Shown here piece by piece: positions 439 through 4,691 of a stretch of DNA of 4,691 bases. Source of the stretch: a virus (taxonomy: Duplodnaviria > Heunggongvirae > Uroviricota > Caudoviricetes); IMG/VR virus record IMGVR_UViG_2693429748_000020. One strand, 5' to 3'. Every line of letters starts with the position of its first letter. Position 1 is the stretch's first letter. A model generated the notes under the pieces. That model worked only from the letters and a program-made list of their open reading frames with translations, ran no database searches and was not told where the DNA came from. Position numbers and translations under genes: made by a program.

Positions 439-858
439 TTATTCCGGTGGGGGATTATCTTTAATCCTGCCTCTCAAATATTTTTCTACATACTCATCGA
501 TTTCTTTTAGCCGGACTTCAAATAGCTCAATCATTCGTTGTTGTTCTGAGCCCGGTAGCTGGTTAAACAACTCAAGAAGTTTTCGTTGGGATTCATTTAA
601 CCACAATTCAGAAGATTCCTGTTCTCCAAAGAGGAGCTCAGGAGGAGATATGCCAAGTGCCTTTCCCAATACGACAGCGTCATGTACTCCAACATTTCTG
701 CTGCCCGCCTCATAGTTACCTATACGCGATTGCGTCCATCCGCAGATTTCAGCAAGTTTTCCTTGAGATAAACCAAGCTTCTGCCTGCGCTCTTTAAGAC
801 GCATTGCAATTTTGTCATTGAGCCTACTAGCGGCAATTTTTTCGTTTTCTTTTTCCAT
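439..858 (-). CDS. Phage repressor A: XRE-family HTH, DicA-like architecture without an S24 peptidase domain (139 aa)
   Basis: ORF with RBS AAGGA 5 nt before the ATG. HTH segment QKLGLSQGKLAEICGWTQSRIGNYEAG. C-terminal motif LLELFNQLPGSEQ parallels LLQLFDALPESEQ in the DicA-like repressor at 2895-3302. Divergent from a Cro-like gene and followed by a terminator. Confidence 0.85.
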   Translation of the reverse strand: MEKENEKIAASRLNDKIAMRLKERRQKLGLSQGKLAEICGWTQSRIGNYEAGSRNVGVHDAVVLGKALGISPPELLFGEQESSELWLNESQRKLLELFNQLPGSEQQRMIELFEVRLKEIDEYVEKYLRGRIKDNPPPE

Positions 859-954: not shown

Positions 955-1197
955 ATGAACAAAATTTCAACATATCGAAAACAGCTTGGGCTGTCTCAAA
1001 GACAACTTGCTGTTCAGTTAGGGTGGATACAAAGCCGACTGGCAAATTACGAAGCAAATTTTCGTACCCCTGGACTAGAGGAGTGCAGAAAAATTGTTTC
1101 TACCCTTAATCGGCTTGGCGCTCATTGTGGACTTGACGATGTATTCCCCCCAGACGGTAAGCATAGCGAAAACAGCATAGGAGCGGTTGATTCATGA
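955..1197 (+). CDS. Cro-like XRE-HTH regulator of cassette A (80 aa)
   Basis: RBS GGAGG 6 nt upstream. HTH KQLGLSQRQLAVQLGWIQSRLANYEA closely parallels the repressor A HTH (LGLSQ..LA...GW.QSR..NYEA). Divergent from the repressor; stop overlaps the next gene start (ATGA at 1194-1197). Confidence 0.8.
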   Translation: MNKISTYRKQLGLSQRQLAVQLGWIQSRLANYEANFRTPGLEECRKIVSTLNRLGAHCGLDDVFPPDGKHSENSIGAVDS

Positions 1198-2536: not shown

Positions 2537-2692
2537 TTACTCACCTGAATGTCTTCCCAACCAACGACGTGCGCCAGCTTCGGTTTTAAACGTTTTGCTT
2601 TTGGTATACGTCATGGCGGTGAATGTGCCGTCCTGGTTGGGGAACACGCCGTACACCAGAGATTCGTTGTTGCCAAGATCGATAGTATTCAT
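2537..2692 (-). CDS. ydfA: ydfA-like small prophage protein, copy B (51 aa from the internal ATG; the ORF track extends to a GTG at 2746)
   Basis: The ATG at 2692..2690 is preceded by a G-rich RBS-like stretch (AGGGGAAATGGGG). Product MNTIDLGNNESLVYGVFPNQDGTFTAMTYTKSKTFKTEAGARRWLGRHSGE. It lies directly downstream of the DicA-like repressor in the same orientation, as ydfA does relative to dicA in E. coli K-12 Qin (recalled). Confidence 0.55.
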   Translation of the reverse strand: MNTIDLGNNESLVYGVFPNQDGTFTAMTYTKSKTFKTEAGARRWLGRHSGE

Positions 2693-2768: not shown

Positions 2769-2798
2769 AATTTAGAATAACCTAAGGTGGGCGGTCAA
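2769..2798 (-). promoter_or_regulatory. Candidate PL-like promoter of cassette B reading toward ydfA (-35 TTGACC, 18-bp spacer, -10 TAAATT)
   Basis: Minus strand: TTGACC (revcomp of 2793-2798) and TAAATT (revcomp of 2769-2774). The -10 is weak. An operator-like TTAG-N6-CTAA site overlaps it. Confidence 0.3.
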
Positions 2799-2821
2799 GG
2801 TTTTTGTGTAGAAAAACCTAA
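2772..2821. promoter_or_regulatory. OL-B: operator-like TTAG-N6-CTAA sites downstream of the DicA-like repressor
   Basis: TTAGaataacCTAA at 2772-2785 is a perfect 4-6-4 core. gTAGaaaaacCTAA at 2808-2821 has one mismatch. Same core and spacer as the three sites between dicA-like and dicC-like. Confidence 0.35.
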
Positions 2822-2894
2822 GTTTTTTGATGTAAAAAACACAAGTGTTTGAAAGTTTGTGCTTTTTATTACAGGGTGTGGAGAAAAAAGGGGA

Positions 2895-3302
2895 TTATTT
2901 GTTTGCGCTTCTTTTGCGAGCTTTGAGTAGTTCTTCAAAAAGTTTGTTGAAATTTTCAACTCGAGCACGCATCTCTGACAACAGGGCCTTTTGCTCTGAC
3001 TCAGGCAGTGCGTCGAACAGTTGAAGTAACTCTTTTTGATCTTCTGTCAGAATGGCTGGCTGATTATCCGGGATCGGTTCGCCTGGTTGTTTATCTTCAT
3101 CCCCAAAAAGAAGCCAAGTCGGTGAGCACTGAAGCGCTTGGCTCAGTGCGAATAATCTTTTCCCCGCCGGCTGTGTTTCATCTCTTTCCCATTGAGAAAT
3201 TGTTACGTGAGCCACTTTGACCAGCTTACCTAATGCGGCCTGAGACAGTTTTAATTTTTTACGCCTATGTAAGAGGCGAGCACCGAAGGTTTCGTTTTTC
3301 AT
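2895..3302 (-). CDS. dicA: DicA-like prophage repressor (XRE-HTH, 135 aa, no S24 peptidase domain)
   Basis: Strong recalled similarity to E. coli Qin DicA across the C-terminal two-thirds (LFALS..LQCSPTWLLFGDEDKQP...LLQLFDALPESEQ...EMRARVENFNKLFEELLKARKR). The N-terminal HTH is diverged. Divergent from a DicC-like gene. Confidence 0.9.
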   Translation of the reverse strand: MKNETFGARLLHRRKKLKLSQAALGKLVKVAHVTISQWERDETQPAGKRLFALSQALQCSPTWLLFGDEDKQPGEPIPDNQPAILTEDQKELLQLFDALPESEQKALLSEMRARVENFNKLFEELLKARKRSANK

Positions 3303-3368
3303 ATTAGGGAATTCTAATTTTTCTTGACTTAGGTTTCTCTACGATCTAGTTTCCTTAGGAAAATCTAA
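3303..3368. promoter_or_regulatory. OR-B: three evenly spaced operator-like sites (TTAG-N6-CTAA) between dicA-like and dicC-like
   Basis: ATTAGggaattCTAAT at 3303-3318; TTAGgtttctCTAc at 3329-3342 (one mismatch); TCCTTAGgaaaatCTAAGGA at 3352-3371 (perfect 7-6-7, core 3355-3368). Centre-to-centre spacing is 25-26 bp, as for lambdoid OR1-OR3. Confidence 0.5.
3324..3352 (+). promoter_or_regulatory. Candidate dicC-like (Cro) promoter (-35 TTGACT, 17-bp spacer, weak -10 TAGTTT)
   Basis: TTGACT at 3324-3329 and TAGTTT at 3347-3352, overlapped by the middle and right operator-like sites. RBS AAGGAG sits 7 nt before the ATG at 3379. Confidence 0.35.
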
Positions 3369-3378
3369 GGAGCTCGAT

Positions 3379-3606
3379 ATGTTGAAAATTGATGCTATAG
3401 CGTTTTTTGGCAGCAAAACAAAGCTTGCCAATGCCGCAGGAGTTAGGCTGGCAAGCATTGCTGCATGGGGGGAACTGGTTCCTGAAGGTCGCGCGATGCG
3501 CCTGCAAGAGGCATCTGGCGGGGAACTTCAGTACGACCCCAAAGTTTATGACGAATATCGTAAGGCAAAACGACCTTGGAAGGTGATTCATGAAAATCAG
3601 GCATGA
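3379..3606 (+). CDS. dicC: DicC-like Cro-type regulator (75 aa)
   Basis: Strong RBS. Divergent from the DicA-like repressor. Product has an HTH-like segment (SKTKLANAAGVRLASIAAW). Resemblance to E. coli DicC is from recall. The 3' end overlaps the ydaT-like start by 17 nt. Confidence 0.75.
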   Translation: MLKIDAIAFFGSKTKLANAAGVRLASIAAWGELVPEGRAMRLQEASGGELQYDPKVYDEYRKAKRPWKVIHENQA

Positions 3607-4012
3607 GCACATCGAATCAGTGTTGTTAGCCCTGGCAGCCGAAAAAGGGCAGGCGTGGGTCGCTAACGCAATTACTGAAGAATATCTGCGGCAGGGGGGC
3701 GGCGAATTGTCTCTGGTACCAGGCAAGGACTGGAACAATCAGCAGAATATCTATCACCGTTGGTTGAAAGGTGAAACGAAAGCGCAAAGGGAAAAAATTC
3801 AGAAACTGATCCCTGCGGTTCTGGCAATTCTTCCGCGCGAGCTGCGTCACCGACTCTGCATCTTCGATACCCTGGAACGCCGTGCATTACTGGCGGCGCA
3901 GGAAGCGTTGAGTACGGCAATTGATGCGCATGATGATGCTGTCCAGGCCGTTTACCGGAAAGCACATTTCAGCGGTGGTGGGTCGCCCGGCGATTCTGTC
4001 GTAGTGCATTGA
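3590..4012 (+). CDS. ydaT: YdaT-like protein (CII functional analog of Rac/CP-933P-type prophages), intact copy, 140 aa
   Basis: 140-codon ORF with RBS GGAAGGTGA, immediately downstream of the cro-like gene. Length and position match YdaT (recalled). Its first 88 codons are duplicated at 1194-1462. Confidence 0.75.
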   Translation: MKIRHEHIESVLLALAAEKGQAWVANAITEEYLRQGGGELSLVPGKDWNNQQNIYHRWLKGETKAQREKIQKLIPAVLAILPRELRHRLCIFDTLERRALLAAQEALSTAIDAHDDAVQAVYRKAHFSGGGSPGDSVVVH

Positions 4013-4056: not shown

Positions 4057-4077
4057 TGTAACGCTGCGAGCGTTACA
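4057..4077. repeat. Palindrome 1 of 3: tGTAACGCT-gcg-AGCGTTACa (perfect 9-3-9), 13 bp upstream of the replication gene start
   Basis: Perfect dyad read directly from the sequence. It abuts the RBS AGGTGA (4078-4083) of the gene starting at 4090. Confidence 0.6.
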
Positions 4078-4089
4078 AGGTGAAAACAA

Positions 4090-4431
4090 ATGGCTTCAAA
4101 CTGGATAAAGCTCGAGGTTATTACGCCGGATAAGCCGGAAATATTCAGGCTTGCTGAGATTCTGAATATTGATCCAGATGCCGCATTAGGGAAGGTTATT
4201 CGCTTCTGGGCATGGGCGGATCAACAAATGATAGACGGTAATGCAGATTGTAACGCTCGCGGCGTTACAAAAAGTGCAATAGATCGCATCACTTTTATGT
4301 CTGGTTTTGCTGATGCGTTAATTCAGGTTGGATGGCTGGTCGAAAATGACGGTGGGCTTTCTCTACCTAACTTTGAACGTCATAACGGAAAAAGCTCTAA
4401 AAAAAACGGGCGGTTACAAACGAGCGAGTAA
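4090..4431 (+). CDS. Replication initiator, N-terminal domain (phage replisome-organizer-like); frame ends prematurely at 4431
   Basis: RBS AGGTGA 7 nt upstream. The N-terminus MASNWIKLEVITPDKPEIFRLAEIL...FWAWADQQMIDG resembles the N-terminal domain of phage replisome organizer / O-like proteins (recalled). The gene position after the CII analog fits a lambdoid layout. Confidence 0.65.
   Translation: MASNWIKLEVITPDKPEIFRLAEILNIDPDAALGKVIRFWAWADQQMIDGNADCNARGVTKSAIDRITFMSGFADALIQVGWLVENDGGLSLPNFERHNGKSSKKNGRLQTSE
4249..4269. repeat. Palindrome 2 of 3: tGTAACGCT-cgc-gGCGTTACa (one inner mismatch), inside the replication gene
   Basis: Same 8-bp arms as 4057-4077 and 4459-4477. Lies in the coding sequence (codons D-C-N-A-R-G-V-T-K). 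Confidence 0.55.
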
Positions 4432-4458: not shown

Positions 4459-4477
4459 GTAACGCTGCCAGCGTTAC
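4459..4477. repeat. Palindrome 3 of 3: GTAACGCT-gcc-AGCGTTAC (perfect 8-3-8), with an extra half-site AGCGTTAC at 4493-4500
   Basis: Read directly. The lone half-site repeats the right arm 23 bp downstream. The site lies just 3' of the 4431 stop, in the only frame that stays open. Confidence 0.55.
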
Positions 4478-4502
4478 ACAAACGGATCAAAAAGCGTTAC
4501 CA

Positions 4503-4538
4503 GAGGAAGAGGAAGAGGAAGAGGAAGAGGAAGAGGAA
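4503..4538 (+). repeat. (GAGGAA)6 perfect tandem hexanucleotide repeat encoding a 12-residue poly-Glu tract
   Basis: Six perfect GAGGAA units read directly from the sequence. They are in frame with the open linker frame of the replication gene. Confidence 0.9.
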
Positions 4539-4691
4539 GATCTAAATACTGATCTCCCCCTCGCCAAAAACGAGCGTCTAAAAAATTCGAGCCGGAGGCT
4601 ATTGAGCTGCCCGATTGGTTGCCGGAAACACTCTGGCATGAGTGGGTCCGGTTCAGACAGGCATTGCGAAAACCGATTCGAACGGAGCAGG

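Follow-up and report, generated by a model that had tools for sequence, protein, structure and literature searches.

Five TTAG-N6-CTAA dyads as probable operators of a Qin-type DicA/DicC immunity switch

Gene content of the window and its two immunity cassettes

The window, by which we mean the whole 4691-bp stretch of DNA that was analysed, carries two lambdoid immunity cassettes in tandem, with an IS600 copy (~1451-2520) between them. Cassette B comprises a ydfA-like gene, a gene for a 135-aa repressor, a divergent gene for a 75-aa protein and a YdaT-family gene (Table 1). A preliminary description had called the two central genes dicA-like and dicC-like, and both proteins indeed score above the cut-offs of the respective families. 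The repressor reaches 237.3 bits over its full length (1-135) against NCBIfam NF007257, 'transcriptional repressor DicA' (cut-off 101), and is 62% identical to DicA of E. coli K-12. The divergently encoded protein reaches 153.8 bits against NF007282, 'DicC' (cut-off 130), belongs to Pfam PF14549 (P22_Cro), is 74% identical to K-12 DicC and matches the structure of P22 Cro (1rzs, E = 2.5e-7). The ydfA-like gene is the first gene of the PL-like (dicB-promoter-like) transcript.

The N-terminal domain of the DicA-like protein (residues 2-69) matches the P22 c2 structures 1adr, 2r1j and 3jxb with E-values of 1e-21 to 3e-21. Pfam returned only HTH families for the 135-aa protein, with no LexA/S24-type autocleavage domain, and DicA has been described as devoid of an Ala-Gly cleavage site (PMC10448788). 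Since the C-terminal part is a short helical domain and the cleavage domain is absent, induction cannot proceed via RecA-stimulated autocleavage.

Cassette A, whose repressor is a different one, has a dyad of its own, AACAC-N5-GTGTT, at 341-355 and 916-930, with a one-mismatch copy at 318-332. Its regulatory regions contain no TTAG-N6-CTAA at up to one mismatch; a single two-mismatch match was found at 301-314. Given its own dyad and the absence of the TTAG-N6-CTAA motif at that stringency, the two cassettes look heteroimmune. Cassette A also holds a 13-bp palindrome, TCACGAATCGTGA, at 871-883.

Two modules are common to the flanks of both cassettes: a ydfA fragment (85-161 and 2644-2720, 96% identical) and the 5' part of ydaT (1188-1469 and 3584-3865, 98% identical), the first copy of which is interrupted by IS600. 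When a collection of complete E. coli genomes was searched for the two cassettes in this arrangement, no record covered at least 80% of the window. The duplicated flanking modules, the ydaT gene cut by IS600 and the absence of the arrangement from the complete E. coli genomes of this collection suggest an IS600-associated rearrangement or a junction of two prophages, possibly in Shigella.

Downstream of ydaT, in and around the replication-gene region, three perfect 19-bp palindromes, GTAACGC-N5-GCGTTAC, lie ~190-210 bp apart at 4058-4076, 4250-4268 and 4459-4477 (0 expected by chance). They may be candidate sites for a replication initiator or another regulator. The same region contains a perfect hexanucleotide tandem repeat, (AGAGGA) x 6.5, at 4502-4540; an ORF at 4090-4431 ends before it, so slippage or frameshifting is possible there.

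Table 1. Genes and regulatory features of the two cassettes (positions in the window).
Feature	Position	Strand	Remarks
Cassette A repressor gene	439-858	-	
Cassette A cro-like gene	955-1197	+	
ydfA-like gene (DUF1391)	2537-2692	-	ATG at 2692; Pfam DUF1391, 97.4 bits; position homologous to K-12 ydfA
PL-like / dicBp-like promoter	2769-2798	-	-35 TTGACC (2798-2793), 18-bp spacer, -10 TAAATT (2774-2769); predicted function
OL1-like operator (putative)	2772-2785	.	Perfect, TTAG-AATAAC-CTAA (minus strand CCTTAGGTTATTCTAAAT); over the -10 of the PL-like promoter
OL2-like operator (putative)	2808-2821	.	One mismatch, minus strand TTAG-GTTTTT-CTAC; adjoins the -35 on its upstream side; distance to OL1 36 bp
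Terminator-like hairpin (predicted)	2833-2868	-	AAAAAGCACAA...UUGUGUUUUUU, with A- and U-runs; directly 3' of the dicA-like stop codon
DicA-like repressor gene (135 aa)	2895-3302	-	NCBIfam NF007257
Oa-like (OR3-like) operator (putative)	3304-3317	.	Perfect, TTAG-GGAATT-CTAA; 1 nt before the dicA-like ATG
dicC-like promoter	3324-3352	+	-35 TTGACT (3324-3329), 17-bp spacer, -10 TAGTTT (3347-3352); by homology
Om-like (OR2-like) operator (putative)	3329-3342	.	One mismatch, TTAG-GTTTCT-CTAC; within the dicC-like promoter spacer
Oc-like (OR1-like) operator (putative)	3355-3368	.	Perfect; 18-bp palindrome CCTTAG-GAAAAT-CTAAGG at 3353-3370
DicC-like (Cro-like) gene (75 aa)	3379-3606	+	NCBIfam NF007282; Pfam P22_Cro
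YdaT-family gene	3590-4012		

Dyad sites, promoters and hairpin of cassette B

The preliminary description had reported three TTAG-N6-CTAA dyads between the dicA-like and dicC-like genes, with centres 25-26 bp apart, and two further copies downstream of the dicA-like gene, one of them perfect and the other with a single mismatch. All five were recovered. Its coordinates for the outer intergenic sites, 3303-3318 and 3352-3371, denote the same sites with 1 to 3 flanking bases. Perfect dyads occur in the whole window only as the OL1-, Oa- and Oc-like sites, and the OL2-like (GTAG...CTAA) and Om-like (TTAG...CTAC) sites have one mismatch each. A sixth one-mismatch match, at 2463-2476, lies in an IS600 end without conserved context and was taken as a chance occurrence. 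The centres of the intergenic (OR) dyads, 3310.5, 3335.5 and 3361.5, are spaced by 25 and 26 bp, the Oa-like and Oc-like centres lying 8 and 59 bp from the dicA-like ATG. The two PL sites have their centres at 2778.5 and 2814.5, and a third PL operator was not found at up to two mismatches in 2693-2894.

The three perfect dyads compare with an expectation of 0.10 for the window, and none of 200 window shuffles reached this number. As the intergenic DNA is AT-rich, the intergenic regions alone were also shuffled, with dinucleotides preserved, 20,000 times each. The OR region (76 bp) contains two perfect dyads and three at up to one mismatch, where the shuffles gave means of 0.009 and 0.10; the fractions of shuffles reaching the observed counts were 0 and 1e-4, respectively. 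For the PL region (148 bp), with one perfect dyad and two at up to one mismatch, these fractions were 1.3e-3 and 7.5e-4.

The sites are not equivalent in their details. The outer CC/GG flank that extends the Oc-like dyad to an 18-bp palindrome is found on one half of OL1 as well, but not on Oa. Om and OL2, read on the minus strand, are identical at 13 of 14 bases and have the same CTAC asymmetry in two different promoters, their common sequence being TTAGGTTT(C/T)TCTAC.

A PL-like promoter directed toward ydfA, anticipated in the preliminary description, was located on the minus strand (TTGACC-18-TAAATT), with 9 of 12 consensus matches in a promoter scan. Relatives keep its TTGAC and TAAAT elements, while its spacer is free to vary. 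The consensus scan did not report the dicC-like promoter because its -10, TAGTTT, matches at only three of six positions. It was assigned by alignment to the K-12 dicC promoter, TTGACT-17-TATCTT, whose transcription start has been mapped by 5'RACE (PMC3441716). The overlaps described earlier with the TTGACT -35 and with the dicC-like ribosome-binding site are confirmed at the level of single bases: the middle site and the -35 have base 3329 in common, and the dicC-proximal site overlaps the Shine-Dalgarno sequence AAGGAG (3367-3372) at 3367-3368. The Oc-like dyad lies right after the dicC-like -10 and spans the predicted dicC-like start and two nucleotides of the Shine-Dalgarno sequence.

On the minus strand, the Oa-like site contains TAGAAT (3316-3311), which is likely the -10 of the dicA-like promoter. 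With the -10 in this place there is no room for a Shine-Dalgarno sequence before the ATG, and the dicA-like repressor mRNA is thus probably leaderless. The dicA mRNA of K-12 is leaderless (PMC4681348, Fig. 2A).

Between the dicA-like gene and the PL-like promoter stands a terminator-like hairpin with a predicted RNA folding energy of -9.6 kcal/mol (z = -3.06; 1 of 200 shuffles as stable). A consensus terminator scan missed it because its stem is AT-rich. In relatives the stems differ and, as judged by eye, pairing is kept. The sequence ACACAAGTGTTT near 2837-2850 was considered as a cassette-A-type operator and rejected, as it contains no AACAC-N5-GTGTT match at up to one mismatch and is rather an arm of this hairpin.

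Related operators and their variation across the family

All five dyads lie at positions of operators of the Qin prophage of E. coli K-12. These operators, Oa, Om and Oc together with those of the dicB promoter, are known from Bejar 1988 (as cited in PMC10448788) and Yun 2012 (PMC3441716); three lambda-like operators have been described at each promoter (PMC10448788). Qin of strain MG1655 has the TTAG-N6-CTAA core at the Oa position, adjoining the dicA start codon (TTAGCTAATGCTAA), at the dicC-proximal Oc position (TGTTAGTTATGACTAACA), which is the positional equivalent of 3355-3368, and at the dicB promoter before ydfA (TTAGCCATGACTAA), the equivalent of OL1. The preliminary description had proposed a comparison with the K-12 dicA-dicC region and had held that absence of the cores from orthologous regions would count against it; the cores are present at equivalent positions.

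The resemblance extends to the gene order (ydfA-dicA-dicC-ydaT/ydfX-like), to the short repressor of 135 aa lacking a RecA-cleavage domain and to the distances of the cores from the dicA ATG, with centres at 8 and 59 bp here and 9 and 59 bp in K-12-type loci. In both systems Oc directly adjoins the dicC -10 and Oa the dicA start codon, and one dyad covers the -10 of the ydfA-directed promoter downstream of dicA. On the other hand, the repressors are 62% identical, with the recognition helix AHVTISQWE here and SHVSVSQWE in K-12, and the spacer sequences are unrelated. The middle site has both half-sites here (one mismatch), whereas the K-12 site has two mismatches in one half, and the PL-like promoter has two detectable sites where three have been described at K-12 dicBp. 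Finally, the outer flank of the strong sites is CCTTAG...CTAAGG here and TGTTAG...CTAACA in K-12, so that the K-12 Oc specificity, TTGTTAG-N6-CTAACAA, is not matched: the core is identical, but the flanks differ. Judging by the sequences, the CC...GG flank is the mark of a different specificity subgroup and no ground for leaving the Qin-type DicA/DicC family.

Published binding data, with which a comparison had likewise been proposed, place DicA and DicC at equivalent sites. DicA recognises a 20-mer with K-12 Oc, TTGTTAGTCATAACTAACAA, in vivo, and no longer does so once one A of the CTAA half is replaced by C (PMC3441716). K-12 Oc shares bases with the dicC -10, and from this site DicA activates dicA (PMC3441716). 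Repression of the ydfA-dicB promoter (dicBp) by DicA is 22-fold (PMC10448788). Cloned singly, neither K-12 Oa nor K-12 Om bound DicA in the in vivo assay (PMC3441716, data not shown there). ChIP-seq of DicC yielded the palindromic motif TT(A/C/T)G...C(G/A/T)AA, with the strongest signal at its own promoter region and binding inferred on both sides of dicA, and induction of DicC lowered dicA 48- to 84-fold (PMC11430063). A further ChIP-seq compendium (PMC12059191) does not mention DicA in its main text. The DicA-family operator consensus proposed in the preliminary description thus agrees with the K-12 sites and the DicC ChIP-seq motif; it is not new, as it re-derives the Qin operators. The sites are moreover probably common to the DicA-like and DicC-like proteins and not purely DicA operators. 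Since K-12 Oa has a perfect core yet does not bind DicA alone, the 8-base core is probably not sufficient for DicA binding by itself, and flanks, spacer or cooperativity would matter.

The repressor is also related to P22 c2 (structures 2R1J and 3JXB), with a homologous N-terminal DNA-binding domain, the same numbering, and Val33 and Gln37 kept from the P22 c2 residues N32, V33, A34 and Q37. The operators likewise have 4-bp half-sites 6 bp apart within an 18-bp dyad in the same register; the P22 operator consensus is ATTTAAGATATCTTAAAT, that is, TTAA-N6-TTAA (quoted in PMC5175364). In contrast to P22, the half-site is TTAG rather than TTAA, residue 32 is His rather than Asn, and the C-terminal part is a short helical domain instead of a cleavable LexA/S24-like one. 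As in lambda, the repressor and cro-like genes diverge from a tripartite operator (OR) with ~25-bp spacing, and the operator site nearest the repressor gene lies over the promoter of that gene. The repressor mRNA probably has no leader, and the lambda cI mRNA made from PRM has none; a further set of operators is situated at a promoter beyond the repressor gene (PL in lambda). Operator sequence and protein family, however, differ from those of lambda, and the two detectable sites of the PL-like promoter, 36 bp apart, bracket its -35 instead of forming a tight triplet.

We compared family loci from bacterial genomes (51) and viral contigs (160). Alignments covering five genera show no change in the TTAG/CTAA columns of Oa, Oc and OL1, next to columns that do vary. 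Most loci with the recognition helix H-V-(T/S)-(I/V)-S-Q-W-E have dyad centres fixed at -8/-9 and -57 to -59 from the dicA ATG, and in loci with H-V-x-x-S-Q-W-E the PL pair is mostly 33-36 bp apart, while spacers and surrounding DNA diverge. The 76-bp OR spacer occurs in 15 haplotypes in the 62 loci whose repressor shares at least 95% identity with the one studied here; 13 columns vary, none of them within the 24 core columns (P=0.004). The Oc core is invariant in these 15 haplotypes and across genera. The OL1 core is invariant in 31 PL haplotypes of the studied allele and is kept, with occasional TTAA variants, in more distant relatives, and most relatives keep the position and core of Oa. 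Om hardly varies in either half from E. coli to Pantoea within the subgroup that has SQ(A/S)AL in helix 2, whereas in the TQR subgroup and in K-12 this position holds only the half-site next to the -35. The asymmetric CTAC half of OL2 is kept in most relatives; as it varies in some haplotypes, OL2 is the weakest-supported of the sites.

The half-site itself varies within the family. Homologues with the helix S-x-(A/S)-(S/T)-I-S-L-W-E have TTGA-N6-TCAA in the same register. As the half-site varies with the recognition helix, protein and DNA change together, as expected of operators, and P22 c2 (TTAA), DicA (TTAG) and the TTGA homologues constitute a small natural recognition-code series. In the 100 nt upstream of the dicA homologue, loci L013, L016-L018, L020 and L022, which have this helix, have dyads of the TTGAG-N4-CTCAA type in the place of Oc and TTAAGATATCTAAA in the place of Oa. 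The outer flank follows another part of the protein: family-wide, the C/G flank goes with SQ(A/S)AL in helix 2 and the G/C flank with TQR, and the recognition helix can be identical in the two groups. The TG...CA flank is found in Qin and in a second common E. coli allele, where TGTTAG...CTAACA is invariant and the 6-bp spacer polymorphic.

A probable Qin-type immunity switch and alternative readings

Core conservation, the K-12 data and the covariation of half-site and recognition helix point to the dyads being OR-like and OL-like operators of a P22-c2-like switch, and we consider it highly probable that all five are operators of a Qin-type (DicA/DicC) lambdoid immunity switch. The individual roles proposed here are carried over from the K-12 orthologues, at 62% (DicA) and 74% (DicC) identity, and are to be read as predictions. 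In the proposed mechanism, which would follow the logic of lambda, dimers of the DicA-like protein would read the half-sites TTAG and CTAA, one helical turn apart, with their P22-c2-like helix-turn-helix. Occupation of Oc would block the dicC-like promoter at its -10 and start site and, by analogy with K-12, would activate the weak dicA-like promoter, so that the repressor sustains its own synthesis. At the ydfA operon, occupation of OL1 and OL2 would block the promoter. These dyads are probably bound by the DicC-like Cro analogue as well, which at Oa would shut off dicA-like transcription and thereby flip the switch. Om and OL2 are probably weaker sites that are filled cooperatively, and a distinct immunity specificity probably results from the outer flank, which is CC...GG here and TG...CA in K-12.

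Some of the conservation could have another origin. In the closest subgroup there is strong conservation throughout the 76-bp intergenic region, four sites overlap promoter or Shine-Dalgarno elements and OL2 abuts a -35, so that part of the site conservation could stem from these elements. Taken to its limit, this would mean that the dyads are not protein-binding sites at all, and that AT-rich promoter, ribosome-binding and start elements (TAGAAT, TAAATT, TTGACTTAG, CTAAGGAG) merely happen to hold TTAG or CTAA. We regard such a coincidence as extremely improbable: in each dyad the partner half, which has no promoter role, is equally conserved at the exact 6-bp spacing, shuffles of local composition give P<=1e-3, the half-site changes with the recognition helix across the family, and K-12 genetics and ChIP-seq place binding at the equivalent sites (PMC3441716, PMC11430063).

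A narrower reading accepts only Oc and OL1 as operators of the DicA-like protein, with Oa serving mainly or only the DicC-like protein, as OR3 serves Cro, and Om and OL2 being half- or non-functional resemblances kept by their overlap with promoter -35 and spacer elements. Indeed, as K-12 Oa and Om do not bind DicA alone (PMC3441716), not every one of the five sites need be a DicA site, and some may not be. The half-site that alone is kept at the middle position of K-12 and the TQR subgroup and the restriction of the CC/GG flank to Oc and one OL1 half fit this reading too, as does the putative -10 TAGAAT within Oa, which is kept in loci L025, L027, L029 and L037 despite a lost CTAA half. However, weak sites that are filled only cooperatively would fail a single-site assay as well, and neither the near-identity of Om and OL2, with the same CTAC asymmetry in different promoters, nor the near-invariance of both Om halves from E. 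coli to Pantoea is expected of accidental resemblances. On balance, this two-operator arrangement appears rather unlikely, and we favour a switch with five operators.

With respect to specificity, we tentatively propose that the allele studied here represents a separate immunity specificity in the DicA family, set by the two outer flank bases of the 18-bp operator rather than by the TTAG core or the recognition helix, both of which are shared. Recognition of the flanks would fall to the first residues of helix 2 (S-Q-A-A versus T-Q-R-x), and Om and OL2 (TTAGGTTTYTCTAC) would be tuned weak cooperative sites. We hold this proposal with distinctly less confidence than the operator assignment itself. 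If it is true, several DicA-type prophages could share one genome without cross-repression.

The main yield of this analysis is the annotation of five operators and three promoters. What is new is the allele-level variant with a different flank, the operator system itself being already well known; the hypothesis that we offer is that a repressor-operator pair conserved in other respects has diverged in specificity through flank bases and helix-2 residues. In most E. coli and Shigella genomes, toxic prophage genes (dicB, dicF, ydfD and others) are kept silent by switches of the DicA type, and many strains carry multiple DicA-type alleles. The operator sequence of each allele shows cross-immunity among prophages, as well as the host sites at which a particular DicA or DicC might act.
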